Assembly: GCA_041306075.1 (NCBI GenBank)
Contig: JBFYKH010000027.1
Location: 4,226-68,225, forward strand
DNA from: Candidatus Altiarchaeota archaeon
GTDB taxonomy: Archaea; Altiarchaeota; Altiarchaeia; IMC4; SCGC-AAA252-I15
Direction: 5' to 3'
Length of the DNA: 64,000 nucleotides
The notes beneath the pieces are model-generated. The model had not been told where the DNA came from. It saw only the letters and a program-made list of their open reading frames with translations, and did not search any database. The position numbers and the translations under genes were made by a program. Shown in pieces: positions 833 to 58,011 of the stretch; positions within the stretch are counted from its first letter, which is position 1, and the number at the start of each line of letters is the position of its first letter.

Positions 833-1050
833 CAGCAAAGAATATGACTAGCCGGTAAAATAACCGGTATGTGAGGAATCGCGAGGTGGTGGTAGGTGGT
901 CAACAGCGTCCGAGAGTTCCCGCAGCTGATGCAGTACAGTCTCCTTCGCTGGAGGTCTTAACTTCTGCGTTCGGAACGAGTGCAGGTGGTGCCCCTCCGC
1001 TATGGCCGTTGACCGACTATATAATAAGCAGGACCACTATAAAAGCACCT

Positions 1051-3636: not shown

Positions 3637-3898
3637 AAGGGCCTATAGTTGATGGAACGCCGCCTTGTCGTTTTTCGTGAATGGTCGGATATTCGACTTC
3701 GTGCCGAATTTATCGGCAGGCAGCGCTGCGGATTCTGAGGCTGTGCACATCACCATTTCGTTGTGGTTCCTGGCAGATCTGTTTTTGGGTTCCTGTGGGG
3801 GTTGGCGTGCGACCTTGCCAGCAGGTAGAGTCTTGTCCATTTTAGGGTTATGGGTGGGGGCTATAGGAACTAAAGGTATGTGGAAACATGGTTTGATT

Positions 3899-3942
3899 AA
3901 AATAAAAAGAAAAAGGGTTTGAACCCCCTTTCGGGGGTTCAA
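3899..3942 (-). terminator. hairpin + oligo-T terminator of the S-layer gene
   Basis: On minus strand: ttgaaccccc-gaaa-gggggttcaa perfect 10-bp stem followed by cccttttTctttttTatttt T-tract, immediately 3' of stop at 3955. Confidence 0.6.
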
Positions 3943-3954
3943 GGCTCGTCAGTC

Positions 3955-6747
3955 CTAAGCGTGGACGTTCGACTGTAGCCAGGATATCAGGGCGTTGCCC
4001 GCGTCGACCGTGTCGGCTGCGGTCCAACCTGCCACGTACACTTTGTTGCCGTCCTTCTTGACGACGTACTGGCCGGTTGCTGCCTGTATCTCCTCTTTGG
4101 CTACGCCGGAGAGGCCGTTGACTGCCGGACCGCCAACAACCACTAGGTTCTTGGTCGTGTCTGCGGCTATCTCGGGTACGACCAGGTTTCCGACGATTGG
4201 GTTCACCATCACGGATGTGGCGGTGACGCCTGTCGTGGAGACCCCGAACTCCTTAACCAGGTACGTGCAGCATCCGACTGTCTTCTCGGTGCCTTCGTCT
4301 GCCTTGGTTATGGTCGTGTCGATGGTCGTGGCCTGCTCGCTGGTTCCGACGAAGACGGTCGCGTAGACCCTGTCCTGCGGCTGGCATATTGTGACAGCTT
4401 CGACTTCTCGGGTTCCCCCGTAGTCGATTGTCGCAATTGTGCCTCCTTCAGGTAGGATGGCTACTGTGTCTTCCTCGTCCTGCCAGACGCCAGAGTACTC
4501 GCCGTCAGCGTCTCCGCTGTCGGGTGCGCCCCAAGCGCCGGTCGCGATGCCTTGGTCGACTGCACTCGTCCATACTCCTTGGCTGTAGTATGTCTCGAGC
4601 GTCTCGTCCGTCCAGTTCCTGTCGTAGAAGTCGATGAGGAGGAACTCCCCTTCGCCGTTCTCGAACTGGATGAGGCGGTCGTCTACGTTCGGCAACCGGT
4701 CTGCGTTCAGGTCTGTCCCGTCTGGGCTGTCGGTGTCCTCGTTGATAACGGTCATGTCGAGGCTGCCTTCGTCAAGTTCGAACTTGTTGAGGGTCTCGCC
4801 ATTCGCGCTGAAGATGCCTTCGTTTATGCCCAGCTTAACGCCGTCCAAATCGGCCGGGACGTTCTCCGGGTCGTCGTCGGTAATCATACCGTTCGGTAGC
4901 AGGTAGATGTCCGAGCCGTCGTAGAGGATGGATATGTCATACAACGTCGCGAGGTCAATCCCGATGAAGACGTCTGTGTCTTCTTCGTTGTCGTTCGGGG
5001 TTATCTCGTCCAGCTCGTCGTCGTTCTCAGAGCTGTCCTCGAACGCGTACTCCTGGAACGAGAACGGGGTCGATGACGACACCGCGCTCAGCTCGTACGT
5101 GTTCTTCCCGCCGCCTAGGAGGTCCTTCAAAGTCAGCTTCATTATGGTCGGGTCGTTGTCCGGCTGGCTGGCTTCGTCGTACTCGTAGACCTTTCCGGCG
5201 ATGACGAACTGGTCACCGCGGGCGAATGGCCCCTGGTCGATGTAGACTCCGTTGTACCTCTGCCCGTCGTCGCCTGTGAAGCTGAGTAGGCCGCGGCTCT
5301 TTCCTTCGCGCTCTACCTTTATGTCGCCTTCACCTGCGCCCGAGCATGGGCTTTCTACGAAGTCGTTTGTCCTGTAGCCGACGAATTCGAGCTTGTATGT
5401 GCTCGGGAAGTCTAGCGACTCGCCGACGCCCAGCTCGACTGCGTGCCTGTACTGGACCGTGATGTTCTCCAGGACCATGCCGACGGTTACGTCGTTGTAG
5501 TCGCTGATGTCGACTTCGGCTGCCCAGGCAACTTCATCGTCCGCGTCAACGGACGTCATGGTTACCTTCCAGTACTTCTTCACTTCGCCGCCCAGTTCCA
5601 TGTCCTTGCCGTCTTCCAATAGGATGTTCGTGGTCGTGTCGTAGACGATGATGCTTGCCGTGGCTACTGCGTCAGCTTCTTCTGCGTAGACGCCCGCAAT
5701 CTCTATGTCGTCGACGATTCCGTTCGCCATCTTGGATATCTGGGTCTGGACTATGGTCCCGTCAGGCTTCTCCACGTCAAGTAGTATACCGGCTACCTGG
5801 TACTCCTCTGAGTATATCAGGTGGTCTATCTTGAACTTGTATCCCATGTACTCCGAGGTGTATCCCTCTGAGGATATGTCGTCCAAGATCTTGCCCTTCG
5901 CTAGGTATATCTTGTCGTCGCCCTGGATGTTCTTGGTGTAGTACTCTTCGCCGAAGAGGATGAACTGCCCCCTCCACTCGAAGTCTATTTCACCGTCTGC
6001 GGTTCCGTCCGTCAGCTTGTTCATCGGGATGTACCCGGTGTCAAGGTTGTACGTCACGGCCTTCGAGTCTATCTTCAGCTCGAGCTTCTCCGCGTCGTCG
6101 GTCCCCAGGCCTGCTTCGTACCAGTGGAGCTTCGTGTAGTCGATTGTTATCGACTCTTCCATCGTGTGCTCCGGGTTCTGGAGGGCTGAGAGACATAGGG
6201 TTTCACAGAACAGGCAGTGTACGTTGTTGTACGTGCCTTTCTTCAGTATCCCTGCCTCTGTCCTCTCCTGCTGGTCGCATGCCAGGCTGTACGACACGAA
6301 CTCTCCGCGCTCGTACTCTACGACGTCAAGGTCTCCTTCAGCGAACTGTAGACCCGTGTTGTCGTCGTAGAAGTCCATCTCGCTGTTCGTGTCGAGGTTC
6401 ACGGCTATCAGGTCAGAGTTCTGGTCCTGCTCGTACTTGCCCGTGGCTCCCCTCGCTGAGACGCCAAGCACTACCTGGCCGCTGGACTCTCCGCCAGAGG
6501 CTGACGCTTGCGCGCTCTTGTACGCTAGGTTTCCGATGACGGCTGCGATGTTGCCCGCAGCTACGGCGTCGGTCGCCATTCCCTTTTCCCCTACGACGAT
6601 TTGGACTATAGGGTTATAGCCCGCATCGTAGAAGAAATCCTTGGTCAATCCCGTGCTGTCCATACCGGCACTTACTGCGCCTGAGACCGCTGCCCCAAGC
6701 ATCACAGCGCCTGCCGCGATGGAACCCACGCGTTTCAAGGTTTTCAT
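3955..6747 (-). CDS. S-layer (surface) glycoprotein, secreted
   Basis: 930 aa with N-terminal signal peptide (MKTLKRVGSIAAGAVMLGAAVSGAVSAG); very acidic and Thr/Ser/Asn/Tyr-rich with many N-x-S/T sequons; no internal TM; AGGAGGT Shine-Dalgarno 8 nt upstream; dedicated terminator. Confidence 0.7.
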   Translation of the reverse strand: MKTLKRVGSIAAGAVMLGAAVSGAVSAGMDSTGLTKDFFYDAGYNPIVQIVVGEKGMATDAVAAGNIAAVIGNLAYKSAQASASGGESSGQVVLGVSARGATGKYEQDQNSDLIAVNLDTNSEMDFYDDNTGLQFAEGDLDVVEYERGEFVSYSLACDQQERTEAGILKKGTYNNVHCLFCETLCLSALQNPEHTMEESITIDYTKLHWYEAGLGTDDAEKLELKIDSKAVTYNLDTGYIPMNKLTDGTADGEIDFEWRGQFILFGEEYYTKNIQGDDKIYLAKGKILDDISSEGYTSEYMGYKFKIDHLIYSEEYQVAGILLDVEKPDGTIVQTQISKMANGIVDDIEIAGVYAEEADAVATASIIVYDTTTNILLEDGKDMELGGEVKKYWKVTMTSVDADDEVAWAAEVDISDYNDVTVGMVLENITVQYRHAVELGVGESLDFPSTYKLEFVGYRTNDFVESPCSGAGEGDIKVEREGKSRGLLSFTGDDGQRYNGVYIDQGPFARGDQFVIAGKVYEYDEASQPDNDPTIMKLTLKDLLGGGKNTYELSAVSSSTPFSFQEYAFEDSSENDDELDEITPNDNEEDTDVFIGIDLATLYDISILYDGSDIYLLPNGMITDDDPENVPADLDGVKLGINEGIFSANGETLNKFELDEGSLDMTVINEDTDSPDGTDLNADRLPNVDDRLIQFENGEGEFLLIDFYDRNWTDETLETYYSQGVWTSAVDQGIATGAWGAPDSGDADGEYSGVWQDEEDTVAILPEGGTIATIDYGGTREVEAVTICQPQDRVYATVFVGTSEQATTIDTTITKADEGTEKTVGCCTYLVKEFGVSTTGVTATSVMVNPIVGNLVVPEIAADTTKNLVVVGGPAVNGLSGVAKEEIQAATGQYVVKKDGNKVYVAGWTAADTVDAGNALISWLQSNVHA

Positions 6748-9752: not shown

Positions 9753-10817
9753 TCACGGCTTCGGTTTCCCGTTCCGTCCGAGGAGCCACAGGTGGCCGCC
9801 GAATACGGACACGAATGCCGGTTCGGGCAGAATCCTGTATGCGGCGTATTGGATGGCAAGGAACGCCCTGAAGAGGGGGGAGGTTATCGAGTCCGCCACG
9901 TCGGCTGAAATCCGCTCTCCGCCGGGCAGGACCCGGAACCCGCACGACTCCAGTAGCCCCTTCAGCCCCCGCCTGTTGAACCGCTGGATGTGGCCGAATA
10001 TCCTCTTCCAGTACGTCCTCCCGTATAGTAGTTGGAGCGTGTCGTGGAGGAGGCTCCTCAGGAACGCGCGCTCGAGGGGGGATTTCACGAGCACGTGGGC
10101 GGACACCCGCGCCTGTTCGAGTAAGACCCTCCTTGGCCCTGGCACGTGCTCGAGGACGTCTATGAGCAGGGCGAGGTCGGCTGTGTTGTTGTGGAGGGGC
10201 AGGTATGCGGCATCGGCAACCACCAGGAGGTCCCGGGGGTCCCGGGGGTGGCGGGACAGCTGTATCGGCGACAGGTCCACGAATATCCGCCTTCCTGAGC
10301 CGGTTTTCTTCGACAGCTCCCGCGAGAAGAGGCCGGGCCCGCACCCCATGTCCAGGAGCGTCTTGAACCTCATGCCCGCCGGTAGGAACGCGGTGATGTC
10401 CTTCAGCTTCCGGTCGACGTCCCGGTGCAGTTCGCTGCCGTGGCGGGCTTCGTACTCCCCGTTCATGTAGAAGTCGTAAAGCTCCTTGGGTGCGGCCGGG
10501 TCGACGACGCTCATGTCGTACACGCCGTCTCTGAGCACGTATTCCCTCTTGCAGACGCCGCACGCCAGCCTGCCGCCCTCTGCCGTGAGCTCTGCCTTGT
10601 CTATCGCGTCATAGGGGCAGGCGGCGACGCACTCCATGCACGACACGCACCTGCCCGTGTCGATGGACGCCCGGCCCCCCGCGTCCTTGACCGCACCGTA
10701 TGCGCACGCCCTGGCGCACGCGAAACCGCACGAGCTCTTCCTGCAATTCCCGGTCGCGACGAGGCATTTCGGGCATGCCAGACAATCCGTGAGGGGGGGC
10801 TCGGACATGGCGGACAT
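9753..10817 (-). CDS. fusion protein: 2x[4Fe-4S] ferredoxin domain + class I SAM-dependent methyltransferase
   Basis: N-terminus CLACPKC...CGFACARAC...CVSCMECVAACP (two CxxCxxCxxxCP clusters); then LDMGCGPGLFSREL (MTase motif I) and LIDVLEHVP (motif II/III). Start chosen at MSAMSEPP because the longer upstream ORF extension is Arg/Glu-rich junk. Confidence 0.6.
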   Translation of the reverse strand: MSAMSEPPLTDCLACPKCLVATGNCRKSSCGFACARACAYGAVKDAGGRASIDTGRCVSCMECVAACPYDAIDKAELTAEGGRLACGVCKREYVLRDGVYDMSVVDPAAPKELYDFYMNGEYEARHGSELHRDVDRKLKDITAFLPAGMRFKTLLDMGCGPGLFSRELSKKTGSGRRIFVDLSPIQLSRHPRDPRDLLVVADAAYLPLHNNTADLALLIDVLEHVPGPRRVLLEQARVSAHVLVKSPLERAFLRSLLHDTLQLLYGRTYWKRIFGHIQRFNRRGLKGLLESCGFRVLPGGERISADVADSITSPLFRAFLAIQYAAYRILPEPAFVSVFGGHLWLLGRNGKPKP

Positions 10818-10847
10818 ATATAGCATATAGGGAATTATTAAGTTGAT
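10818..10847. promoter_or_regulatory. compact bidirectional TATA promoter driving two divergent leaderless genes
   Basis: tatatagcatatagggaattattaagttgat lies between the divergent ATGs at 10817 (-) and 10848 (+); each ATG is ~25 nt from a TATA-like element. Confidence 0.45.
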
Positions 10848-12395
10848 ATGCTTCCCGGGCGCGGTTTCATGGGGTTTGGCGGCAATCCCCTTGATAGCCG
10901 GAAGCTCATCGTCCTCATCGCGCTCGCGGCGTTGGCTGCCAGGCTCACGCTCGCGCCCATGCACATAGACTACGGCCGCACCGTGGCGGATGTTCCCAGG
11001 GGTTACGAGTACTGTCGCGTGTCCGACACGCTGCCGTTCGACTTCTACGGCTACGTGTGCCCGGCACAGCGGATGCTCGCGGGCAAGAGCGTCTACGCCA
11101 ACTATTCGATACATCGGGACGGCTACCGGGGATTCCCGTACCCACCCTACCATCCCCTCGCCATGGCTGCGGTCATCAGCCTCTTCGGCCCAGACTTCAT
11201 GTGGATGAAGGTTCCGTCGGCGCTCTTCGACGCGGGAATCGTCGTCCTCGTGTTCCTCATCGCCGAGAGGCTGTTCGACACAAGGCGCGGCAACGTCGCC
11301 GCCCTGGCCTACGCGTTCTCGTACAACTTCCTCATCAACTCCGGCGCCTACGGGAACGACGACCACTATTTCATGTTCTTCGTGATGGCTGGCGTGTATT
11401 TCCTCATCGCTGGGAGGCTGCCATTGAGCTCCGTATCGATGGCTGGTGCCCTCGCGTTCAAGGTCAGCGCCCTACTCTTCCTGCCGCCGATGGCTTTTTA
11501 TATCTGGAGGAGCCGCGGCCTGAAGGCGGTCTTCGCCTACAATGCGCTGGCCATCGTTGTCACGGGAGCCCTCATAGCCCCGTTCTTCGCGTCCGAGGGC
11601 CAGGCCGTCCTGAACCCGTACAAACCCGGTGAGGGCATGCAGATAGACGGCTACGGTGTACTGAACGTCATCAGGCTGACTTACGGCCTCCCCTACCACG
11701 CCGTTCACAGGGAATTGCTCCTCAGGCACAACGACCCCGCCGACCCGATGACGTACGGGGGGACGCATCCGTTCCAAAGGCTCCTGAGGCTCCTTGAGCT
11801 CCCGTTCAACGCCATCGGCTTCCTGATTGCGGCCGTCTACGTGCTGCGTTACAGGATGGCGTCCGCGGAACGGGAGCTCGCCAGGAACTCGTTCGTCTTC
11901 ACACTGGCGATGATGGCCTTCTCTAAGGCGTTCTACGAGCAATATTTCCTGTGGCTGACGCCCTTCCTCATCATCCTTTTCGCGGAGAAGGCGAGGGGAA
12001 TCGGCCGCCTCGAGGCCGCGGGGATGGCGCTGGTGTACGCGGCCTGCCTAGTCCAGGCGGGCGTGTGGACGACGCTCCTGTACAGGCCGTTCGCGGAGCA
12101 TGCCTGGCTTTGGGCCGCCGCGCTTCTTGCCGTGGCGGGCAGCTGCATGATGTACCGGGTCTTCGGCAACGGCCGGTGGCGGACGATGTCGGCGCTGGCT
12201 CTCATCAGCGTATACTCCAACTTTGCGATGAGCCTGCCGTTCATCGTCTTCCATCCGCTGGTGGCAGGTTACATAGGCCTCGATGCGCTCAGGCAGCTCA
12301 CGTTCTACGTCGGCAACTACGTCGCGGGGATTTTCACGCTGTGCATGATGTATGTCACGGCGGGACAGCTGCGCGGGGAAGAGGGGGGGGCATGA
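10848..12395 (+). CDS. polytopic GT-C-fold glycosyltransferase (PMT/ArnT/DUF2029-like)
   Basis: 515 aa with ~11-13 hydrophobic segments and loop motifs typical of the GT39/83/87 superfamily; first gene of the glycosylation island. Confidence 0.5.
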   Translation: MLPGRGFMGFGGNPLDSRKLIVLIALAALAARLTLAPMHIDYGRTVADVPRGYEYCRVSDTLPFDFYGYVCPAQRMLAGKSVYANYSIHRDGYRGFPYPPYHPLAMAAVISLFGPDFMWMKVPSALFDAGIVVLVFLIAERLFDTRRGNVAALAYAFSYNFLINSGAYGNDDHYFMFFVMAGVYFLIAGRLPLSSVSMAGALAFKVSALLFLPPMAFYIWRSRGLKAVFAYNALAIVVTGALIAPFFASEGQAVLNPYKPGEGMQIDGYGVLNVIRLTYGLPYHAVHRELLLRHNDPADPMTYGGTHPFQRLLRLLELPFNAIGFLIAAVYVLRYRMASAERELARNSFVFTLAMMAFSKAFYEQYFLWLTPFLIILFAEKARGIGRLEAAGMALVYAACLVQAGVWTTLLYRPFAEHAWLWAAALLAVAGSCMMYRVFGNGRWRTMSALALISVYSNFAMSLPFIVFHPLVAGYIGLDALRQLTFYVGNYVAGIFTLCMMYVTAGQLRGEEGGA

Positions 12396-26612: not shown

Positions 26613-26628
26613 GGAAACAGGGGCATAC

Positions 26629-26745
26629 GCGACCGTAGTGTAGTGGCTCGGCCTTCCTAAGGCCGGCGAAGGAGCCATCTTCGCTCGGGCTCGATGGCTC
26701 AGGACGTATGAACCCGCAGAGGGGGATGGAACAAACAACAGTGTA
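26629..26745 (+). ncRNA. tRNA-Gly-derived degenerate tRNA-like unit 1 (5' half + anticodon-like arm CCU, no 3' acceptor strand) fused to a conserved hairpin module
   Basis: Starts with GCGACCGTAGTGTAGTGGCT, identical to the 5' 20 nt of tRNA-Gly at 26877; then CGGCC-TTCCTAA-GGCCG (perfect 5-bp stem, 7-nt loop, U33/A37); then CGAAGGAGCCATCTTCGCTCGGGCTCGATGGCTCAG. No CGGTCGC acceptor 3' strand. Confidence 0.4.
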
Positions 26746-26746
26746 C

Positions 26747-26870
26747 GCGACCGTAGTGTAGTGGCTATCACTGAACCTTATTAAGGTTCACGAAGGAGCC
26801 GTCTTCGCTACGGCTCGACGGCTCAGAACGGATGAAGCCTCTGACAAGGGGGTGGATTAAACAAAAAAAA
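26747..26870 (+). ncRNA. tRNA-Gly-derived degenerate tRNA-like unit 2 (acceptor 5' strand + D-arm + anticodon-like arm with loop UUAUUAA) fused to the same conserved hairpin module
   Basis: GCGACCGTAGTGTAGTGGCTATCACT identical to tRNA-Gly positions 1-26; then GAACC-TTATTAA-GGTTC; then CGAAGGAGCCGTCTTCGCTACGGCTCGACGGCTCAG, which shows compensatory A:T to G:C changes relative to unit 1; no 3' acceptor strand. Confidence 0.4.
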
Positions 26871-26876
26871 CCATAC

Positions 26877-26948
26877 GCGACCGTAGTGTAGTGGCTATCA
26901 CTCCAGATTGCCAATCTGGTGACTCGGGTTCGAATCCCGACGGTCGCA
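26877..26948 (+). tRNA. tRNA-Gly (anticodon GCC), intronless
   Basis: GCGACCG-TA-GTGTAGTGGCTATCAC-T-CCAGA-TTGCCAA-TCTGG-TGAC-TCGGG-TTCGAAT-CCCGA-CGGTCGC-A; canonical cloverleaf with 4-nt variable loop; CCA not encoded. Confidence 0.9.
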
Positions 26949-26975
26949 AACTGATTTATTTGTTAACGATTTCTT

Positions 26976-27036
26976 GTCACGAAACCGTCGGGGTGCAAAA
27001 AGCCTGCAGGCTTTTATAGAAAATCACGACTGCCGC
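26976..27036 (+). repeat. ~60-nt structured repeat, copy 1 (immediately 3' of tRNA-Gly)
   Basis: tcacgaaACCGTCGGGGtgcAAAAAGCCTGCAGGCTTTTatagaaaatCACGACTGCCG; about 85% identical to copy 2; inner palindrome AAAAGCC/GGCTTTT. Confidence 0.6.
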
Positions 27037-27073
27037 ATGGATAAAAAGGTATATCCCCTAGGGATGATACATA

Positions 27074-27319
27074 ATGATGGACAAAGGGGATACTCGCGTA
27101 ATCTGGATTATTTCAATAATAATAGTCATGGCAATTTTCCCCCATAGCGAAAAAAGATGTGAACGATGCTCGGAGCTATTTACGCTTGGCTGGCCAATCG
27201 ATACCTATTCAAGAAACAGCACGGGAGATTTGATTGCGCCCGGGGCAGGACTTATAGTATACCCTTTAACCATCCTAATCCTTCTTACCTATCGAAACCA
27301 GCATAAAAAAATTAATTAG
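27074..27319 (+). CDS. doubtful small hydrophobic ORF within AT-rich insert
   Basis: 81-aa ORF in a ~500-bp AT-rich segment between the two structured repeats; no support beyond ORF length. Confidence 0.15.
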   Translation: MMDKGDTRVIWIISIIIVMAIFPHSEKRCERCSELFTLGWPIDTYSRNSTGDLIAPGAGLIVYPLTILILLTYRNQHKKIN

Positions 27320-27536
27320 GTTGATTTTTCCCTAGTACCCATTCACCTTGGAGGTTGAGGTATATTTCTAGGTTTCCACCCCCCCCGACCCATCCGTTCG
27401 CTCGTACAATGTTCTTCGCCTGGTATTGAAGTCCGATACAGCCGCAAAATTTTTCGGAGATGTGGGATGGCTACGCATTAGATATTTTACGCAATTCCCA
27501 ACGGCCGGAAACTGAATTTTTGGCGGACAATTTATC

Positions 27537-27596
27537 GTCACGAAACCGTCGGGGTGTAAAAACCTGAATGGTTTTTAGAAAAATCCCGACGGTCGA
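27537..27596 (+). repeat. ~60-nt structured repeat, copy 2; 3' arm is a 14-nt identical copy of the tRNA-Gly 3' end (att-like)
   Basis: tcacgaaACCGTCGGGGtgtAAAAACCtgaatGGTTTTTagaaaaaTCCCGACGGTcgaaa; AATCCCGACGGTCG (27582-27595) equals tRNA-Gly 26931-26944. Outer 9-bp stem ACCGTCGGG/CCCGACGGT; inner stem AAAAACC/GGTTTTT covaries with copy 1. Confidence 0.6.
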
Positions 27597-27672
27597 AATT
27601 ATATCTATTATCGGTTTGGCTGCTGTGTTGAAATAGTGTAGCGACTTAATATCGTATACTTCCGGCTTGTAT

Positions 27673-28398
27673 ATGACGATGAGGAAGTTGAGGGGGCAGC
27701 CGCTGCTTTCCCCGCCCGGCCCGGATTTGGTGCCTGAGTGGCTGAGGGTGACGCCAGAGGACAGGGAATGCATGAGAGGGACGCTTGAGACGTATAGGAC
27801 GATGGACGGCCTCGACTGGGCGTTGGCGGAGTTGCACTGCCATATGCGGCTTATTGGCGAGACGCAGACCGTGACGGATGAGGATAAGAGGGGGTTTACG
27901 AGCCAGATGGAATCGTATAGGACGGACCGGGACGGCTGGGGTGTGGCCTTGATGCAGTATTCCATGCGGCAGCTCGGGGTGGCGGAAGCGGTAACTGAGC
28001 AGGATAGGAGGCTCATGAGGCGTGAGTTGGAGGCGGACAGGACAGGTCACAAGGGCGGAGAGCTTGCCTGGATGCACTATACTATGCGGCAGCTCGGGGT
28101 GACGGAGGCGGTAACCGGCGAGGACAGGCAGGACATGAAACAGCAGTTGGGCGGATACAGGACGGACCACGACGGCGCGGGAGTCGCCAGGATGCACTAT
28201 TATATGCGGCAGATTGGGGAGGGGGAGGCGGTGACGGGCCAGGACCGCATCGACATGAGGCATTCCCTGGAGGCGTTTAGGTCGAGCCCGGACGGCCGGG
28301 AGATGGCCTGGATGCACCACGTCCTCCGCTCCCTGGAGCCGGACGGCGGGAGGCAGGCGCAAGCCGGGATGCCGCCTTTGAAATCGTTCAGGAGGTAA
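27673..28398 (+). CDS. RP family member 1: novel ~40-aa tandem helical-repeat protein with conserved N- and C-terminal caps
   Basis: MTMRKLRGQPLLSPPG... then 4.5 repeats (..DGxxxAxMHYxMRQLGVxEAVTxEDRxxMxxxLxxYRT..) ... GMPPLKSFRR; paralogous to five other genes in the window. Confidence 0.6.
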   Translation: MTMRKLRGQPLLSPPGPDLVPEWLRVTPEDRECMRGTLETYRTMDGLDWALAELHCHMRLIGETQTVTDEDKRGFTSQMESYRTDRDGWGVALMQYSMRQLGVAEAVTEQDRRLMRRELEADRTGHKGGELAWMHYTMRQLGVTEAVTGEDRQDMKQQLGGYRTDHDGAGVARMHYYMRQIGEGEAVTGQDRIDMRHSLEAFRSSPDGREMAWMHHVLRSLEPDGGRQAQAGMPPLKSFRR

Positions 28399-28416
28399 TA
28401 AGCGCTCAGGGAGAAT

Positions 28417-28662
28417 ATGTTTTGTGGCATGATGAAAAGACACCACATAATATTGCTGGTTCAATGGTTTTTCTTCACGTCGCTGATACTGTTCGTGCTG
28501 ATTCAGCTGGGTATCCTCAACCGCGCCCCGGCCGGGTTGACGGCGTTCGAGAAGGCCGTTGTAATCTTCGAGGCGGTAGTCGGCATCCAGTTCCTCTACC
28601 TCGTGTTGTTCGCGCTCTGCTATGGCCCCGGTTTCGTCTCAAAAAAGCTGGGATTTGATTGA
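28417..28662 (+). CDS. small membrane protein (2 TM), hypothetical
   Basis: 81 aa with two long hydrophobic segments; follows RP1 after an 18-nt gap. Confidence 0.35.
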   Translation: MFCGMMKRHHIILLVQWFFFTSLILFVLIQLGILNRAPAGLTAFEKAVVIFEAVVGIQFLYLVLFALCYGPGFVSKKLGFD

Positions 28663-28812
28663 GCCGGGGGGTTAGTTGGTTTCTGCTTCGCTTTTTTTTC
28701 GTCCGGCTTCTTCCGGGTTTCTTTTTGGGGTGTGTCTTCCCGGAGGGTAAAATCCTTTATTTTCGGCGCTTCTGGGTAGAGTTCGATTCCCGGGAACCTT
28801 GGCTCTGGTTTC

Positions 28813-29208
28813 TTATTTAATCGGATTCTCATTTTGCTGTTTTTCTTCCGTCCTAGGCATCAGTCCCGGGTCCGTCTTCCTCTTGATTAGGAAGTAGTAT
28901 AGGGTGGCGCCGAGCCAGTGTGTTAGGGCGATGATGAGTACCCAGGTGGTCTTGTCGCTTTCCGTTTCGAATTTCCTGTTGACGCAGTCGACGAGCATGA
29001 GTATCCAGAAGACGGTGCCGAGGACTCCCAGGGCCACGATGGCGGCCATGAAGAGGAGCCACAGGAGCCAGAAGCCGCCGAATAAGGCGACTGGGATGAG
29101 CATCAGGAGGATTGCGAAGAGTCCGGCGCCGGCTTCGCCGCCGCCTTCGGCCGCCGCGTATGATGCCGCCGCCGATGCCGCTGCCGCGAGCGCGATTGGC
29201 TTGTTCAT
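28813..29208 (-). CDS. small integral membrane protein (PLDc_N-like)
   Basis: 131 aa with 3 TM; WVLIIALTHWLGATLYYF resembles the PLD-nuclease N-terminal (PLDc_N) small membrane family. Confidence 0.4.
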   Translation of the reverse strand: MNKPIALAAAASAAASYAAAEGGGEAGAGLFAILLMLIPVALFGGFWLLWLLFMAAIVALGVLGTVFWILMLVDCVNRKFETESDKTTWVLIIALTHWLGATLYYFLIKRKTDPGLMPRTEEKQQNENPIK

Positions 29209-29217
29209 GTGTTATAG

Positions 29218-30117
29218 ATGGCGCTCGGGGCATTTATAGGCGGCGGGGGCATTATAGTTCTACGGGTGTTTTTGGTGAGGACGTTCTGGAAGATTTTATT
29301 GACTTTCGCGGTCCTGGGCTTGTTCGTCCTGGTCATCGCCTTCAGTTTCGCCGCAGTTTTGAGCGGCCTTGACGTTCCGGCGCTCGGGGGAGGAGCCGTC
29401 GCGGTCGTCCCGGTTCACGGGAGCATCACGATGGGCGGCTGCCCTGCGGGCCTGTTCGACTCCGAGAGCTGCGCCGACGTTGAGGAGATAAAGGACCTCT
29501 TGAAGAGCGCGGACCGTGACCCGTCTGTGAAGGCGATACTCTTGGACGTCTACTCAGGCGGCGGGAACGTTGTGGCGTCGAGGGAGCTGATGAGGGCTGT
29601 TAAGGCCACGAAGAAGCCGACCGTCGCGTGGATCGGGGAGATAGGGACTTCCGGCGCGTATTACGCCGCCTCGGCTGCCGATACGGTGATGGCGGACGAG
29701 AATTCCATGACCGGGAGCATCGGCGTCATCATGTTCGTGGAGCATTATTACGGGCTCTTCGACTGGGTGGGGATTAACGTTACGACCATCAAGGCCGGGG
29801 ACAGCAAGGACATCGCGAGCCCGTACAGGCCCATGACCGAGGAGGAGAGGCTTGAGCTGCAGTCGATGATAGACAAGGTCTATGACAGCTTCGTCGCCGA
29901 CGTCGCGGAGAACCGGCATATGAGCCTGGACGTGGCGAAGAAGGCCGCGCAGGGGAGGATTTACCTTGGCGTGGAGGCCAAGGATGCGGGCCTCGTCGAC
30001 GAGCTCGGAGGATACGATGACGCGGTGGCGCGGGCCGCCGTCTTGGGCGGCATCAGGGGCGAGCCGGAGGTCAGGAAGCCGGAGCGGAAGGTGAGGCTCA
30101 CGGACCTCCTGAAGTAA
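29218..30117 (+). CDS. sppA: signal peptide peptidase SppA (36K type, ClpP/crotonase fold)
   Basis: N-terminal TM, then ILLDVYSGGGNVVASRELMRAV...GTSGAYYAASAADTVMADENSMTGSIGVIM (SppA catalytic region). Confidence 0.75.
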   Translation: MALGAFIGGGGIIVLRVFLVRTFWKILLTFAVLGLFVLVIAFSFAAVLSGLDVPALGGGAVAVVPVHGSITMGGCPAGLFDSESCADVEEIKDLLKSADRDPSVKAILLDVYSGGGNVVASRELMRAVKATKKPTVAWIGEIGTSGAYYAASAADTVMADENSMTGSIGVIMFVEHYYGLFDWVGINVTTIKAGDSKDIASPYRPMTEEERLELQSMIDKVYDSFVADVAENRHMSLDVAKKAAQGRIYLGVEAKDAGLVDELGGYDDAVARAAVLGGIRGEPEVRKPERKVRLTDLLK

Positions 30118-30152: not shown

Positions 30153-30353
30153 ATGGGAAGGATAAAGCAGATTTTCCTGAAAAGGGTCGCTGTGAAGGCC
30201 ATGAGGGAGTATCCGACCTCGTTCGGGCCGGAGTTCCAGGACAACAAGAGGAAGATTCACGCCTTCACCGACGCCACCAGCAAGAGCATGAGGAACAAGA
30301 TCGCGGGCTACATCACCAAGAAGGTGAAGCAGAACGCGAAGAAGAAGGACTAG
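30153..30353 (+). CDS. rps17e: 30S ribosomal protein S17e
   Basis: MGRIKQIFLKRVAVKAMREYPTSFGPEFQDNKRKIHAFTDATSKSMRNKIAGYITKKV, strongly eS17-like; TATA gtttataagggg ~25 nt upstream (leaderless). Confidence 0.85.
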   Translation: MGRIKQIFLKRVAVKAMREYPTSFGPEFQDNKRKIHAFTDATSKSMRNKIAGYITKKVKQNAKKKD

Positions 30354-31129
30354 ATTCTGTAGCAGGCTCCGCTCTGGGGGCACGGCCGGCATCTTTCCGG
30401 ATTTCCGTGCGGGCAGACGTCCGGTATTTGGCCGTCGAGTATCGCCTCCACGCCGTCTCTCGCCTTGAGGGTCGCCTCGCGGAGGCTCTCGGTGAAGGGC
30501 ACGGGCTGTCTCTTGGCGTGGCGGACGAAGTCCATGAGGCCGTACCCCGCCTCCGTCCCAGAAGATTCCTCGACCAGCATCCCGTAAGAGCACAGCTGAA
30601 TCCGGTCCTCGGTCCACGACGATGCCGGCTGGCCTCTCGTCTTCACGTCCACGGGGACCAGGGCGCCGTGCCACATTATCTTGTCTACGACGCCGCTGAT
30701 CCGCAGGGTCTCCGAGGAGAGCCGGCAGTCGACCTCTAGCGGGGTAAGGTAGTCGACAGCCTCCTCGAAACCCATGTCCTCGGCCATCGCCTCGATCTCT
30801 CCCGCCAGGTTCGCGATTTCGAGTGCCGCTTCGCCGGCTATGCGCGGAAGGTGCGCGCCGTATCCCGTCCGCCACTGCCCCCGGAACGTATGAGGCGCAT
30901 CAGCGATTATCGACTTGAGTTCGGCGGCGAACGCGGCCTGTGCCTCCTCGACGGAGCCGACTGCTGGCAGGAGCTTGGACTGCCTGAGCGACAGCTCCCT
31001 CCGCACCATGTGGCCCACCCTTGCCGCGTCCAGTTCCGCTGTCCGCTCCTCCTCCGCCTTGAGGACGATGGCGAGGTATGCCTGGCGGGGGCAGTAGAGG
31101 AATGCCCCGATGTCGCAGACGCGTATCAT
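30350..31129 (-). CDS. Cas4-like/DUF83 PD-(D/E)xK nuclease with Fe-S cysteine cluster (no CRISPR locus nearby)
   Basis: N-terminus MIRVCDIGAFLYCPRQAYL (Cas4-type first Cys), PVDVKT (ExK-like catalytic motif), C-terminal CPHGNPERCRPCPQSGAC. Confidence 0.55.
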   Translation of the reverse strand: MIRVCDIGAFLYCPRQAYLAIVLKAEEERTAELDAARVGHMVRRELSLRQSKLLPAVGSVEEAQAAFAAELKSIIADAPHTFRGQWRTGYGAHLPRIAGEAALEIANLAGEIEAMAEDMGFEEAVDYLTPLEVDCRLSSETLRISGVVDKIMWHGALVPVDVKTRGQPASSWTEDRIQLCSYGMLVEESSGTEAGYGLMDFVRHAKRQPVPFTESLREATLKARDGVEAILDGQIPDVCPHGNPERCRPCPQSGACYRI

Positions 31130-52844: not shown

Positions 52845-53504
52845 GTGCCAAACAGCCAAAAACTCAAGGTCTCTGAGGCCGCGCTCATCGCCTCCAACGC
52901 GATGGTGCTGCTTTACGCCCTGATATCCTATAGGGACCAGCTTTTCATCATCTACGCCTTCCTCGGGGAGAACGCCGTTATATGCGCCTTCGTTTTTTTG
53001 AAGTTGATGGTCGTGGCGTTCTACGGGGCCCGCGAGAGGGTAAGGGGGAAGGCCCGGTTGACGTTCAGCAACGAACTCTTCGGCCATATAGGATTCCCCT
53101 TAAGCTTCCTTATCACCAACGCAATCCTGGTGATGATTAGTTTCTGGGTTGTCAGTGGCATCCTCGCCCGCCGGAGCAGGGGCATGGAGTGGGCCATTTC
53201 GATAAACATACTCGACCTGATAGCCATTCCCATGCTGGTGTACACCGCAAGTCACCTCGTGTCCTTCGCCTCCAATTTCATAGGCCTGAGGGAGTACGGC
53301 AGAGAATATGGGAGGCCGGGTATGGTCCCGATAATTAAGTACCCGTTCATCAGGATGATTTCGTTCGCCTTCTTCGGAGTTGCGGCCGCGGCTATGTCCG
53401 GCCCGGCCTCGGTCTCAGCGGTCCTGCCCGCCGTAGCCCTCACGATAGCCAAGACGTCGACGGACCTGTACTACCACAGAAGGGAGCACGAGACGGGAAG
53501 CTGA
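52845..53504 (+). CDS. hypothetical polytopic membrane protein
   Basis: 219 aa, 5-6 hydrophobic helices; sits between the PurM-like gene and a duplicated PurM-like 3' fragment. Confidence 0.4.
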   Translation: MPNSQKLKVSEAALIASNAMVLLYALISYRDQLFIIYAFLGENAVICAFVFLKLMVVAFYGARERVRGKARLTFSNELFGHIGFPLSFLITNAILVMISFWVVSGILARRSRGMEWAISINILDLIAIPMLVYTASHLVSFASNFIGLREYGREYGRPGMVPIIKYPFIRMISFAFFGVAAAAMSGPASVSAVLPAVALTIAKTSTDLYYHRREHETGS

Positions 53505-53596
53505 TGGTCACACTCACAGGATACGAGTACGTCAACCTCGAAAGGATATGCGCGAAAACCGGATGCAGGCTCGCGAAGATAGGGACAGCAGAGTAA
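53504..53596 (+). pseudogene. orphan 3' fragment paralogous to the C-terminus of the PurM-like gene
   Basis: Encodes MVTLTGYEYVNLERICAKTGCRLAKIGTAE*; nucleotides 53518-53596 are ~75% identical to 52723-52803 (TENECVNLEKICAKHGCKLTRIGTVG*). Confidence 0.45.
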
Positions 53597-53686
53597 AAAA
53601 AACGGGCGATTCAAGCCACGCCTCCGACAAGCTTCTCCAGATAGGATAAATGCGATGTTATATTTCGTCGCGCGGATAGGTAGATT

Positions 53687-54868
53687 ATGGCCCTGGTTGA
53701 GAATGAAGAAGTGAACGAGCTGGTTCTTAACGAAGTACGCAGTTGGGTTGATGACGGCATCATCACAGAAGAGCAGGCATCCAGGATATCTGAAAGATTA
53801 AGGTGTAAGGGAAAAAGCTCCACGTTGACAAGCTCTCGTTTTATCACCATCTTGTCGGTCATGGGCGCCCTGCTTCTGGGCCTTGGAGTAATCCTGTTTT
53901 TCGCCGCCAATTGGCAGGCAATCCCCAAATTTGTAAAGGTGCTGATGATATTAAGTTTAATTGCAGCCACCTACCTCATCGGCTATTACCTGAAATATGT
54001 GAAAAAAGACTATCCAATGGTGGGCAGCGCCCTCATCTTCCTTGGCTGTTTGCTCTATGGTGCGGGAATCTGGCTTATCGCCCAGATGTACAATATGAAC
54101 GCACATTACCCAAACAGCATACTCCTATGGGTCGCCGGCATACTCCCGATGGCCTATCTTGGCTCTTCTTCAGCCATACTCGTATTATCCCTGTTGTTGA
54201 TGTCGTTTTGGGTCACGTCCGAAGTTACCTTCCTGACATATGCGACAAGATACTCCTACCTCAGCCTGATAATGCTCTACGGAGCCGTATTGCTTGCAAT
54301 AGGCAACAGACATAGGCTCGGTAGGTACTCGTTTTTTAGCGGCTATTATGCGGTACTCGGGATGATACTCATCCACGTCTCTGCATTCCCGCTGACATTC
54401 TCATTCACCCATGCGGGGAGCGCTTTCGAGCCAGTCCCAGAAACCCTTGCACTCATAGAGATTCTAGTCATGGTTTTGGCAGCAGGCTTAACATTCCCTT
54501 ACGAAGCGATTAAATCACGGAATATCGACGTCTCCTTTACAGACGTTATAGGAGTTGTGCTGATCTGCCTTCTTGCCATATCCGTGACCGCGGCCCCGTC
54601 ACTTTTTTCAAACTATATTATTTCGAACACCTTATACTTCCTTCTGCTCGTTGGCTCAGTGTATATGGGAGTTACAAAACAGTCCTCGGGGATTATTAAC
54701 ATTGGTGTTGTTTTCTTCTGCCTTGACGTTATTGCCAGATACTTCGGCTTATTCTGGGAGTTGTTGCCCACGTCGCTATTCTTCCTCTGCGGGGGTGCCC
54801 TGGTACTCGGCGGCGGGATAGCACTGGAGAGGAAGAGGCGCGGCATACTAAGAGCCCTAAAAAAATGA
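53687..54868 (+). CDS. DUF2157-family polytopic membrane protein
   Basis: N-terminal soluble segment (VRSWVDDGIITEEQASRISE) then ~10 TM; paired with a downstream GDYXXLXY-domain gene, as is typical for this family. Confidence 0.5.
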   Translation: MALVENEEVNELVLNEVRSWVDDGIITEEQASRISERLRCKGKSSTLTSSRFITILSVMGALLLGLGVILFFAANWQAIPKFVKVLMILSLIAATYLIGYYLKYVKKDYPMVGSALIFLGCLLYGAGIWLIAQMYNMNAHYPNSILLWVAGILPMAYLGSSSAILVLSLLLMSFWVTSEVTFLTYATRYSYLSLIMLYGAVLLAIGNRHRLGRYSFFSGYYAVLGMILIHVSAFPLTFSFTHAGSAFEPVPETLALIEILVMVLAAGLTFPYEAIKSRNIDVSFTDVIGVVLICLLAISVTAAPSLFSNYIISNTLYFLLLVGSVYMGVTKQSSGIINIGVVFFCLDVIARYFGLFWELLPTSLFFLCGGALVLGGGIALERKRRGILRALKK

Positions 54869-55386
54869 AAAAGAGACGCTTCATCAGCATAGTCGTATTT
54901 CAGATGACGCTATTACTGTTGATGATAGCCTACAAACAGTATTCAGTCTATACCGGAGAAACGATACGCCTCCACCTCCAGCGGCCTGTTGACCCGCGGA
55001 GCGTGTTCTCGGGCAATTATGTCATTCTCTCCTATGATATTTCGACCTTAAACCAAAGCTTGGCCCGGGGGGAATCGTTCAATTATGGGGATACGGTTTA
55101 CGTGGCATTATCAAAACAGGGGGAGTACTGGGTTCCCGCATCGATTGAAAAGATTCCGCCAAAAAAAATCTTTATCAAAGGGACAGTAGCGAGTTCATGG
55201 GGAGGCAGTATACAGGCAAGGTATGACATAGAGCAGTTCTATATCCCCGACTCCCGGGCGAAGGAGATGGAAGAACGACTGAGGATTGCTGAACGATCTG
55301 GAGACGCCTATGCCGAGGTTGTAATAGACGGCAACGGGAATGCCATTGTGTCAAAGGTATTCCTAGGGGTGGAGGAACTGGTATAG
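54865..55386 (+). CDS. GDYXXLXY-domain protein (membrane-anchored)
   Basis: N-terminal TM; FSGNYVILSYDIS contains the GDYxxLxY-like motif (GNYVILSY); ATGA overlap with DUF2157 gene. Confidence 0.55.
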   Translation: MKKRRFISIVVFQMTLLLLMIAYKQYSVYTGETIRLHLQRPVDPRSVFSGNYVILSYDISTLNQSLARGESFNYGDTVYVALSKQGEYWVPASIEKIPPKKIFIKGTVASSWGGSIQARYDIEQFYIPDSRAKEMEERLRIAERSGDAYAEVVIDGNGNAIVSKVFLGVEELV

Positions 55387-55749
55387 GACCTAGTAGGACA
55401 TACACGGACAGGATGCTGTCACCTGAGTGGCTGAAGTTTGGACACAATACATGCTAAATTTCTTATGACCTGAGTAAAAAGGTTTGTCAGGGACATGAAC
55501 CACAACTTCAACAGAAGAGGCCTTTGCCCCTTCCGGCCTGAAGAGCCTGCGGCCCTCCAATCAAGCCACGCCAACGACACGTCAGTAAAAAGGCGGCTTA
55601 TAGAGGGTTGTTTTTCGAGTTGCCGGTTTGTTTATAGACCGATACTATCAGTAAATAGAGGGATTATGGGTACTTCCGTTAGAAGAGACATACAGATATT
55701 ACAAAACCTGGTGAAAATACGTCAATGCAAAGCCCAATATGGTATACGC

Positions 55750-57993
55750 TCATTCAATCTTTGGTTCGCTTATGGTTATCTTTTGTCCTGCTCGCACGTA
55801 TAGGACATCTTTGTCCTTGAACCTATTCAAAAGCTTTTCCTCCTCGGATTCCAGTTTGGGTATGGAAAAGCCGAGGATTATTATGTCTGCTAAAGCTGAT
55901 CTCTCATCAATCAAGGCCTCGAGGGTTTTTTCTCCTTCGTCGTATTGTATCTCCTGGATTATGTCCTTTGAAAGCGGCAGTTCCTCTGATTCGATGAGTG
56001 CGGTTAGTTTCTGGAGGTGGCTGTCGAGATGATTCTTGTGGAATGTGGCGAATATATCTATTGATGAGCCCTTCCATTCAGGGTGCTCGCTCAGGATATA
56101 TGCGAGCATTGTCATCAACTTAGCGTTTCGGTAGTCCTCAGGATTAAGCCAAACATGTATCCTGGTCTTATAGCCAAAGCGTTTCTCGGATGGACGTAGT
56201 ATGCAGATGTTGTAGCTCATCATGGCTGCAAGGCGGCTGGCGTCTATGATGTTCCGTATACTGTCCGGGTCTTCGGCATCATATTCCACAAGTAAGCCGT
56301 TGTTTTCCATCCCGGATACGCCAGGCATCTGGATAATATCTTCCACTGCAGACTTGAATGACGGGGCGATGATTGTGTCTGCGTATATGGATGATTTGCT
56401 CGCAGCCCCGATTTGCACCAGCCCCTCAAGGTCCTTCTTAGACCTCCGTTTAGTCTCCTGGGAAAGCTCGCCTTTGATGTAGTGTATGTAGGTCCCAAAG
56501 CCATAGTAGTGTGAGAACCATCTTAGGAGGTCGAACAGCGCAAGTCGTTTGAAAGATGTGGATGATAGACCGATAAACGAGGGTCTCCATCCCGTAAATG
56601 ATAGGTCCATCTGGTAGTGTTGGATGATCACCCGGAGCTTGCGAGATAGCTGGAAGAAAGCACCTGTGACCATATCCGAGAGGTCAAACTCATCGGAGTG
56701 ATTTTTTTTGATGTTGAGGTATATCCCGCCTATCGCTATCAGTGAGAGGGTTGCGTAGAATGGAGACATCTGAAACATAATAAAGAAGCATAGTACAGCC
56801 CCCGTAAGGGAGAGATACCATTTTGTCCTGAATGTGGGTTGGTAGGACAGATTTCCTGCGAAATGCTGTAGGAAACTCACAAGGCATACGGCGCCGTAGG
56901 TTACCATGAAGAACATGCTGATTATCTGCGCTACGAAATCTACGGTGCCTATGAATACGAAGAATAAGACGATTATGGCTGTCACGAATGTCGCGTTTGC
57001 CGGTTCATTCGCTTCTCCGAAACCCTTGCTTAGATAGTGGTTCAGTGTCTTTGACGGAAAAACCCTATCCTTTGCCAATGCCTGCATAGTGCGTGGAGCT
57101 ATGAGGAGTGAACCGACAGCGGAAGACAATGTCGCACAAGCCAGACCAACCAGGATGAGCGGACCCCACAATGCGATCTTACCCATGATTAGCTGGTCAG
57201 CCGATAAATCCCCAGGTGACGCCGAAAGAGCTAACTTTATCACCACAAGGAAGTATACGACCATTCCAACCAAAGTAGCAGAGACCGTCCCTAATGGAAT
57301 CGATTTTGCCGGGTTTTTCAAGTCGCCAGACAAACCCACTCCTGCGGTGAGGCCGGTGAATGCAGGGAACACTATCGCAAACACCAGGAAGAAACTGGCT
57401 GGATTGTCGATTGTGGAAAAAAAGTTGATGTGTTGAATCCCATCCACTGGCGAACCTAGTAAGAATGAGGCAAGAGATATTCCCATAATGGAGACGATAA
57501 CCCATAAAGCATTAATGCCGATATTGGCGCCTCTGCGGAGTATCGTATATAGGAGCAGGATTGTGGCGGGAATACTCACCATCCTAAGGTCGGGGGTAAT
57601 ACCTGTGCTGGTTTGGATGAAATCAAATAGTGGAGTGAACGCTTGTGAAAATGCAATCATATAAAACGAGACCGAAATCGCCTGCGCAGCGTACAGGGAT
57701 ATGCCGATAGTGCCACCTATCATTGTCCCAAAAGAACGGCTGATGATATAATATTCCCCGCCACCGCGCACTTTCAGATTAGTCGCAATCTCAGAGACGG
57801 CAAGGGCGGTAGGTATAGTTATTGCATGGCCGAGCAGGATTACTAGGAATGCACCGCCCAACCCAAGATTAGCTACCAGATAACCGAACCTGAGGAAGAC
57901 TATCGCCCCCAATATGGTGCTTATCGCTGCCAGGAATACCGGGGCAGTACCGAAATTATGCCCTTTACGTTGGTCATCCATATAGCCTCTCAC
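55750..57993 (-). CDS. APC-superfamily transporter with C-terminal cytoplasmic domain (cation-chloride cotransporter SLC12-like)
   Basis: About 12 TM with amino-acid-permease-like motifs (GGGEYYIISRSFG, FPAFTGLTAG), then a ~300-aa hydrophilic C-terminal domain typical of CCC transporters. Confidence 0.65.
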   Translation of the reverse strand: MRGYMDDQRKGHNFGTAPVFLAAISTILGAIVFLRFGYLVANLGLGGAFLVILLGHAITIPTALAVSEIATNLKVRGGGEYYIISRSFGTMIGGTIGISLYAAQAISVSFYMIAFSQAFTPLFDFIQTSTGITPDLRMVSIPATILLLYTILRRGANIGINALWVIVSIMGISLASFLLGSPVDGIQHINFFSTIDNPASFFLVFAIVFPAFTGLTAGVGLSGDLKNPAKSIPLGTVSATLVGMVVYFLVVIKLALSASPGDLSADQLIMGKIALWGPLILVGLACATLSSAVGSLLIAPRTMQALAKDRVFPSKTLNHYLSKGFGEANEPANATFVTAIIVLFFVFIGTVDFVAQIISMFFMVTYGAVCLVSFLQHFAGNLSYQPTFRTKWYLSLTGAVLCFFIMFQMSPFYATLSLIAIGGIYLNIKKNHSDEFDLSDMVTGAFFQLSRKLRVIIQHYQMDLSFTGWRPSFIGLSSTSFKRLALFDLLRWFSHYYGFGTYIHYIKGELSQETKRRSKKDLEGLVQIGAASKSSIYADTIIAPSFKSAVEDIIQMPGVSGMENNGLLVEYDAEDPDSIRNIIDASRLAAMMSYNICILRPSEKRFGYKTRIHVWLNPEDYRNAKLMTMLAYILSEHPEWKGSSIDIFATFHKNHLDSHLQKLTALIESEELPLSKDIIQEIQYDEGEKTLEALIDERSALADIIILGFSIPKLESEEEKLLNRFKDKDVLYVRAGQKITISEPKIE

Positions 57994-58011
57994 TAAACCT
58001 TCGTTATTGAT

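Follow-up and report, generated by a model that had tools for sequence, protein, structure and literature searches.

A solo RP gene downstream of tRNA-Gly

We have analysed a 64,000-nt stretch of a Candidatus Altiarchaeota archaeon genome (GenBank assembly GCA_041306075.1, contig JBFYKH010000027.1, positions 4,226 to 68,225 of the forward strand), referred to here as the window. It is high-GC archaeal DNA (~0.64), encoding S17e, an RFC subunit, HMG-CoA reductase, an MJ-type S-layer protein and a CGP-CTERM protein. The subject of this work is a gene of a repeat-protein family, named RP, which occurs as a single copy shortly downstream of the gene for tRNA-Gly(GCC) and of partial duplications of that tRNA gene, and which is followed by a small open reading frame (ORF) with two predicted transmembrane segments (the 2-TM ORF). 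The features of the locus are listed in Table 1; positions are those of the window.

Table 1. Features at the tRNA-Gly locus and the RP arrays elsewhere in the window.
Feature	Position	Strand	Description and basis
Two tandem tRNA-like leader elements	26628-26745, 26746-26876	+	5' 20-26 nt of tRNA-Gly (acceptor 5' strand and D-arm), then two hairpins
tRNA-Gly(GCC)	26877-26948	+	ARAGORN; Rfam 69.8 bits
DR0, att-like core	26933-26948	+	Last 16 nt of tRNA-Gly, AATCCCGACGGTCGCA; repeated sequence
Module 1 (unit A)	26949-27037 (26933-27037 including DR0)	+	Spacer, inverted tRNA-end copy ACCGTCGGGGT, A5-hairpin-T4, DR1
Filler between the modules	27038-27493		456 bp, AT-rich (GC 0.43)
Module 2 (unit B)	27494-27597	+	DR2, spacer, inverted arm, inner hairpin, DR3
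Solo RP gene	27673-28398 (ORF open from 27667)	+	241-aa alpha-solenoid; translation, repeats, family motif, codon score
2-TM ORF	28417-28662	+	81 aa, two predicted transmembrane segments; ORF call, hydrophobic segments
Convergent intergenic spacer	28663-28812		T-rich; end of the variable interval; sequence
PLDc_N-domain membrane protein gene, right flank	28813-29208	-	Pfam; shared only by the nearest relative (75% aa identity)
S49 signal-peptide peptidase gene	29218-30117	+	Conserved right anchor of the empty-site comparison; Pfam
Tandem array of three RP paralogs	39784/39787-42004	-	243, 254 and 243 aa; tblastn
Tandem array of two RP paralogs	45995/45998-47400	-	232 and 236 aa; tblastn

The start of the solo RP gene was placed at the ATG at 27673 because of the N-terminus MT.K.K.LR.QPLL found throughout the family. 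The four 40-aa repeats described in an earlier note on this DNA are all present in the translation, in full, at residues 45-204; repeats 2-4 are 50-62% identical to one another and 33-38% identical to repeat 1. In the DNA, they are seen as a period of 120 nt (TRF score 304, 76% matches), and a repeat search returned a 162-nt segment in three copies. A half repeat at either end, added to the four full ones, makes five helix pairs. Indeed, the AlphaFold2 model (computed from nine family sequences; predicted local distance difference test, pLDDT, 87; predicted template modelling score 0.79) consists of ten helices in five antiparallel pairs over residues 28-221. The pLDDT exceeds 90 over residues 21-220, while the tails, residues 1-20 and 222-241, are modelled as disordered (pLDDT below 50). 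These tails, MTMRKLRGQPLLSPPG at the N-terminus and GMPPLKSFRR at the C-terminus, carry the terminal motifs of the family. The solo RP gene is a genuine gene for a soluble alpha-solenoid.

The codon-usage score of the plus-strand ORF is +0.15 (core range: 0.16-0.52), and its composition (GC 0.628; GC at third codon positions 0.826) lies inside the core range or at its lower limit. An antisense ORF spanning the whole gene (27646-28464, minus strand, 272 codons) scores -0.36; it is a typical shadow ORF of high-GC DNA and has no entry in the protein collection searched. The two codon scores thus identify the plus-strand ORF as the gene. The solo RP protein is itself without an entry in the collection of 15 billion proteins under three start codons, while its neighbours from the same record (the 2-TM ORF, the PLDc_N and S49 genes and three RP paralogs) do have entries; the gene was probably left uncalled, or called differently, in the source NCBI record.

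The small two-segment membrane protein that the earlier note had reported after the RP gene is present as an ORF. This ORF begins 18 nt past the RP stop codon with a GGAG 4 nt before its ATG, and, judging from the sequence, it is probably co-transcribed with RP. The source NCBI record annotates it as a gene, and it is a singleton cluster, with no family match in Pfam, NCBIfam, PHROG or PADLOC; its GC content (0.51) and codon score (-0.05) are atypical compared to core genes. That the 2-TM ORF is a real gene is uncertain.

Copies of the tRNA-Gly 3' end form palindromic modules

The RP gene had been described as lying 75 bp past a structured repeat with a copy of the tRNA 3' end, and this position is correct. 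The 14-mer AATCCCGACGGTCG of the tRNA-Gly 3' end is found again, without mismatch, at 27582-27595; it is part of a copy, DR3 (27582-27597, 15 of 16 positions identical to the tRNA end), that ends at 27597, and the RP ATG is 75 nt further. Two other direct copies are less faithful: DR1 (27022-27037) is degenerate, at 13 of 16, and DR2 (27494-27509), at 12 of 16, is followed by the same AACTGA trailer that follows the tRNA. Segments 26935-27022 and 27496-27583 constitute an 88-nt duplication with 75% identity, including a 20-mer with two exact occurrences (0 expected).

Modules of this kind share one build: a 16-nt copy of the tRNA end, a spacer of ~35 nt, an inverted copy, a stem-loop between A5 and T5, and a second direct copy, the result being a near-perfect palindrome of ~50 nt. 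Module 2 is an intact long hairpin (-26.3 kcal/mol, fold z-score -5.3); the hairpin of module 1 has decayed (z-score -0.06).

The filler between the two modules includes an 81-codon ORF (27074-27319) with a codon score of -0.75, which is probably non-coding on its sequence characteristics. The filler gave no six-frame Pfam match and has no homolog in any of the loci fetched. A 19-nt direct repeat (27227-27245 and 28652-28670, 17 of 19 positions identical, 1425 nt from start to start) brackets the distal filler, module 2, the RP gene and the 2-TM ORF; its rough chance expectation is 0.03-0.1.

The interval between tRNA-Gly and S49 is hypervariable

Scanning metagenomes with the neighbouring S49 peptidase yielded five informative loci, named L082 to L086. 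The closest are L082 and L083 (S49 93% and S17e 95% identical at the amino acid level, flanks ~85% at the nucleotide level); they come from the same sample as a syntenic contig, L079, with core proteins 87-93% identical to those of the window, and likely from the same population. The homology of L082 with the window extends up to the last base of tRNA-Gly (window position 26948) and resumes at 28842, within the PLDc_N gene. Between these breakpoints, L082 has AT-rich DNA unrelated to that of the window (713 bp, including a minus-strand ORF of 152 codons), then PLDc_N; there is no RP gene, no 2-TM ORF and no module in the L082/L083 slot.

The other loci differ again. L085 (S49 65% identical) is essentially empty: tRNA-Gly is followed by two modules, with S49 within ~20 nt. 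In L086 (S49 70%), two intact modules and a decayed third one follow tRNA-Gly, and an antitoxin/ParE toxin pair (609-1075; Pfam E 9.7e-9) occupies the slot of RP and the 2-TM ORF before S49. In L084 (S49 66%), the leader-plus-tRNA module is inverted, and 3 kb of other genes are present. In this locus, the leader and tRNA-Gly (5264-5438) are inverted relative to the DUF5698 gene and S49, and the variable genes are on the promoter side. A contig search with the DUF5698 neighbour returned only distant homologs (at most 56% identity), with neither synteny nor tRNA-Gly.

No RP gene occurs in the slot of L082/L083, L084, L085 or L086, and the site is differently occupied or empty, with the breakpoint at the tRNA end. 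The interval from tRNA-Gly to S49 is therefore a hypervariable islet. RP and the 2-TM ORF occur in the window lineage specifically: they are lineage-specific accessory DNA in an islet that extends from the 3' end of tRNA-Gly to PLDc_N/S49. The empty-site comparison proposed in the earlier note thus gave relatives that lack RP and a break in homology exactly at the tRNA-Gly end. That note had also named the observation that would speak against it, i.e., relatives with the gene in the same place and no att-like duplication; the opposite was seen, namely the duplication without the gene. Relatives lacking RP carry the same repeat modules, so the duplication is not tied to the RP gene.

Seven additional tRNA-end copies are present in the window, L085 and L086 taken together. 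They start at T-loop nucleotide 57 or 58, with (G)AATCCC, and end at the discriminator base, with CGCA; those of L085 share the acceptor-stem variant of the tRNA of that lineage. Going by the sequence, the copies have the classical form of an attachment (att) identity block for crossover in the T-loop, a sublocation and block form that Williams is said to have described in 2002 for tRNA genes. The spacer of module 1 is orthologous to that of the distal unit of L086, and since this distal unit corresponds to unit A of the window, the other units of L086 were added proximally, beside the tRNA.

RP is an unannotated, fast-evolving protein family

Besides the solo gene, the window encodes five RP paralogs, 25-31% identical to it (tblastn). 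All five sit elsewhere, in the two tandem arrays of Table 1, which is why the copy behind tRNA-Gly is rightly called solo, as it was in the earlier note. A profile built from the six RP proteins of the window was used for an exhaustive search of 1.84 billion cluster representatives, and it identified 203 clusters at E ≤ 1e-3, 138 of them at E ≤ 1e-10. Among the matches listed, most are 230-260 aa long and aligned end to end. Word-indexed homology searches perform poorly for this family (0, 5 and 3 matches); it was the exhaustive hidden Markov model search that succeeded. Two motifs are conserved across clusters, M(T).K.K.LR.[QP]PLL.PP at the N-terminus and [ML]PPLK[RK]F at the C-terminus, and they correspond exactly to the segments that are disordered in the model. 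The solo protein aligns with family members end to end in phmmer (E 1e-37 to 1e-22). RP is an unannotated, fast-evolving family of proteins of usually ~240 aa, often encoded in tandem and defined by proline-rich motifs on disordered tails.

The six RP paralogs match no Pfam family at E ≤ 1, and nothing in NCBIfam, PHROG or PADLOC. A PDB sequence search gave nothing better than E 0.03, and Foldseek searches of PDB and BFVD with the model gave nothing below E 0.3 (template modelling scores 0.2-0.5); the weak, non-significant neighbours are designed helical repeats, TPR and Sel1 proteins. No relevant paper emerged from a literature search on the C-terminal motif. Domain fusions were seen in just two proteins, P0121 (1060 aa) and P0134 (1087 aa), where the RP repeat domain is C-terminal, behind HEAT repeats. 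Family member P0099 is followed by an overlapping gene for a protein of similar length (255 aa), which is likely a paralog. Like TPR, Sel1-like and HEAT proteins, RP proteins stack helix-turn-helix units of ~40 aa into a solenoid, and two of them are fused to HEAT repeats. Unlike these, RP matches no Pfam repeat model or structure at the thresholds given above, and it has a fixed length and conserved proline-rich tails. Given the modelled fold and the conserved tails, the RP protein is most likely a protein-binding scaffold or adaptor, in which the tails would act as short linear docking motifs. With ~200 clusters, well modelled and unannotated, the family offers interaction studies a defined target.

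Among public proteins, the solo RP protein finds its best match at 39% identity; for core proteins, identity to the nearest relative is 87-95%. Counterparts with 71-85% identity exist for four of the five other RP genes of the window (RPc, RPd and RPe in locus L078, RPa via P0003), and RPb was found among public proteins only as the window's own sequence (P0001). An origin of the solo gene as a recent duplicate of the genomic paralogs was considered and rejected: the paralogs rank 43rd or lower among 153 family members, with bit scores of at most 71 against the solo protein, and foreign members reach 120. Because foreign members are closer than the genomic paralogs, the solo gene is not a recent internal duplicate.

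The arrays themselves are organised differently in L078, where two and three copies (3876-6027 and 10001-11481) stand against three and two in the window. Only three of the five array genes of the window have L078 orthologs, 71-77% identical, while adjacent core genes are 87-93% identical. This change in copy number, together with the lower identity, implies that the RP family turns over and diverges quickly.

Rapid evolution, with copy numbers that differ between close relatives, would suit a defence or abortive-infection-like island cassette, in which RP and the 2-TM ORF would act as a two-gene module, the repeat protein as sensor or regulator and the small membrane protein as effector. Both are on the same strand, 18 nt apart, and in L086 their place is taken by a toxin-antitoxin pair. 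We nevertheless regard this function as extremely unlikely. Neither protein matches PADLOC (scanned with RP, its five paralogs, the 2-TM ORF and PLDc_N) or PHROG, and a 2-TM partner is found at none of the five other RP genes of the window, nor in L078 or L103. The 2-TM ORF, with its atypical codon usage and no known homolog, may moreover not be a real gene.

Origin of the islet and of its RP gene

With moderate confidence, we favour the interpretation that tRNA-Gly marks a hot spot and that RP and the 2-TM ORF are accessory cargo in it, either old or acquired through recombination. The islet would be a hot spot of recombination, and the modules, each a hairpin between direct copies of the tRNA end, would most simply be the scars of repeated site-specific recombination with T-loop crossover at tRNA-Gly. 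Newer insertions beside the tRNA would push older DNA distally. Since RP and the 2-TM ORF lie distal to the last scar, they would have been acquired before the surviving scars were formed, or would have come in when recombination between the conserved flanks replaced the DNA there. The composition of RP would since have become close to native. The order of the repeats may be reconstructed accordingly to a Campbell-type event: insertion of a small circle (U_A-DR1-filler, where U_A is unit A) into the tRNA end would yield DR0-U_A-DR1-filler-DR2-U_B-DR3, with the old tRNA end and its trailer displaced to DR2-U_B and RP already in place at that insertion.

Such histories have parallels. Accretion and decay of islands can end in integrase-less remnants, such as the CIMEs of Streptococcus. 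In archaea, tRNA fragments that remain as attR scars are documented (PMC9897764). As in archaeal tRNA integration sites with attR-type fragments (e.g., PYG1 of Pyrococcus yayanosii), the copies at our locus run from the T-loop to the discriminator base, and lineage-specific variable DNA starts exactly at the tRNA 3' end. The locus differs from these sites in that no integrase or recognisable element is present, the copies bracket only ~90-560 bp with RP outside, and every copy belongs to a long palindrome, of which it forms the 3' arm. Serial integration is also documented as a way in which islands are built, with older elements pushed distally (bioRxiv 10.1101/2020.12.28.424599). The tycheposon islands of Prochlorococcus are similar in having a row of partial-tRNA repeats at one tRNA, with newer insertions proximal and older ones distal, and cargo that differs between close relatives. 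They are unlike the present islet in size (tens of kb versus ~2 kb); our host is an archaeon, the composition of RP is native-like, and an active element was seen in none of the five loci examined. To the known tRNA-anchored variable islets, the locus adds one that is small, archaeal and without a surviving integrase, and it holds a member of an unannotated family.

Several observations weigh against the interpretation that we favour. There is no integrase or mobility gene, or remnant of one, in 26949-28841 (six-frame Pfam over 26949-27672; RP, 2-TM and PLDc_N ORFs; E ≤ 1), and PHROG gave nothing better than E 0.009. No att copy exists beyond RP and the 2-TM ORF: the repeats bracket only 26949-27581. 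(The best candidate for a downstream attR, 28781-28792, matches at 11 of 12 positions, covers only the generic T-loop region and is at chance level.) The RP protein, the pattern of the hairpin unit and the 22-nt tRNA end are all without a match in IMG/VR. The GC content and codon usage of RP are near those of the core and give no compositional sign of foreign origin. DR3, nearest to RP, has kept more of the tRNA sequence than DR1 and DR2, which are closer to the tRNA; a simple age gradient does not predict this. The palindromic modules would fit selection for a hairpin, e.g., a terminator, as well as they fit scars. Finally, the role suggested for RP would rest on its fold and motifs, with Pfam, NCBIfam, PHROG, PADLOC, PDB and BFVD all lacking a match.

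The proposal of the earlier note, that RP arrived with or as cargo of an element that used tRNA-Gly as its integration site, therefore stands in part. The hypervariable islet and the relatives without RP are in keeping with it; the lack of bracketing, the lack of an integrase and the near-native composition are not. Of the checks that it had put forward, the search for integrase remnants came back empty in 26949-27672, and in composition and codon usage the filler and the 2-TM ORF alone depart from the core. Duplications of a tRNA end adjoining a gene do not alone make that gene the cargo of an element. A viral origin of RP was rejected on its absence from IMG/VR. Four IMG/VR matches to the bare 17-nt tRNA core look like chance, without hairpin or tRNA context; one of them, L109, was confirmed to be inside a coding ORF.

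The structure of the modules also invites an explanation in which they are no scars at all. They could be trailer structures of tRNA-Gly, i.e., terminator or processing hairpins, that were duplicated locally, and RP with the 2-TM ORF, or the whole intergenic stretch, could have been swapped in by homologous or illegitimate recombination between the flanks without an integrase. Intact units fold far better than shuffled sequence (z-scores -5.3 to -8.7); their inner stems vary between units and remain complementary, the outer stem covaries with the tRNA variant and its arms accept G-U pairs, and the A5/T5-flanked hairpin in each unit is terminator-like. No integrase was found in the interval, and the homology breakpoints fall at conserved genes, tRNA-Gly and PLDc_N. 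Units A and B share their spacers too, at the 75% identity over 88 nt given above, as local duplication would produce. On the other side, the boundaries of the copies are sharp and constant, from T-loop to discriminator base, which is typical of att blocks, and the spacers of most units are unrelated. The T5 run precedes the 3' arm, so that efficient termination would leave the outer stem untranscribed; tRNA-Met, also in the window, has no such module; and the slot in L086 carries typical island cargo, the ParE toxin pair. Known hairpin/oligo-T trailers of tRNAs resemble the A5-stem-loop-T5 core in being located directly downstream of a tRNA and strongly stable. They differ in that the hairpin described here carries additional 11-bp arms, formed by one inverted and one direct tRNA-end copy, and is repeated two to three times, and the window's other tRNA is without one. 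Taken together, a trailer origin of the modules appears possible, if rather doubtful.

Another alternative concerns the timing of the acquisition. RP and the 2-TM ORF could, together with PLDc_N, already have been present in the ancestor of the window and L082 lineages; RP and the 2-TM ORF would then have been lost in L082 when a newer insertion replaced the DNA next to the tRNA, the copy in the window being the survivor. PLDc_N is common to these two lineages only, so the distal islet predates their split, and the ancestral trailer unit, kept in L085, L086 and the window, is likewise gone from L082. The near-native codon usage of RP and its location distal to all scars, the "oldest" position, agree with such a history. 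It is unlikely, however: no RP ortholog above 39% identity is found in public protein data, though the population of the relative is well sampled in several metagenomes, and the more distant L084, L085 and L086 have no RP either. Only timing separates this account from acquisition as cargo of the hot spot, the interpretation that we favour.

In a further reading, the modules would be miniature integrative elements that are not dead but non-autonomous, depending on a tRNA-Gly-specific recombinase, encoded elsewhere, that acts in trans. They would capture neighbouring genes such as RP and the 2-TM ORF and carry them from one archaeon to a related one, and RP proteins would be island cargo that evolves fast, with conserved tails that plug into a host machine. 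This we consider very unlikely. If the modules are either scars or such miniature elements, DNA flanking the recombinase would contain GTCGGGRTGYAAAAA..ATCCCGACGGTCGCA.

Leader elements of tRNA-Gly and other features of the window

The two tandem tRNA-like elements ahead of tRNA-Gly are context and outside the RP gene. They lack the T-arm and the 3' acceptor strand, and they include seven base pairs with compensatory changes; neither matches an Rfam family. The window has two copies, L082 (155-266), L086 (138-253) and L084 (5338-5438, minus strand) one each, and L085 none. Identification as C/D-box sRNAs, split tRNAs or intron-containing tRNAs was rejected by eye, as the 3' acceptor strand, the T-arm and proper box spacing are missing. 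A TATA-like box precedes the leader rather than tRNA-Gly, and this suggests that leader and tRNA are transcribed as one precursor. The leaders and the palindromic trailers of tRNA-Gly are RNA or DNA structures open to transcript mapping.

Elsewhere in the window, a region of low GC content (53000-58500; GC 0.46-0.53) encodes DUF2157 and GDYXXLXY proteins and an amino-acid permease with non-core codon scores (-0.30 to -0.39); DUF6498 and Na/H exchanger genes are nearby, and no integrase was found among the ORFs scanned. It may be a second acquired region. Between the genes for S17e and tRNA-Met lies a stand-alone gene for a Cas4-like PD-(D/E)XK nuclease (30350-31129, minus strand); the stretch examined around it contains neither a CRISPR array nor further cas genes. 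The protein is 75% identical to the copy of the relative, versus ~90% for core genes. A 5S rRNA gene (898-1013, minus strand; Rfam 67 bits) is present near the start of the window, with no adjacent large-subunit rRNA gene within it.

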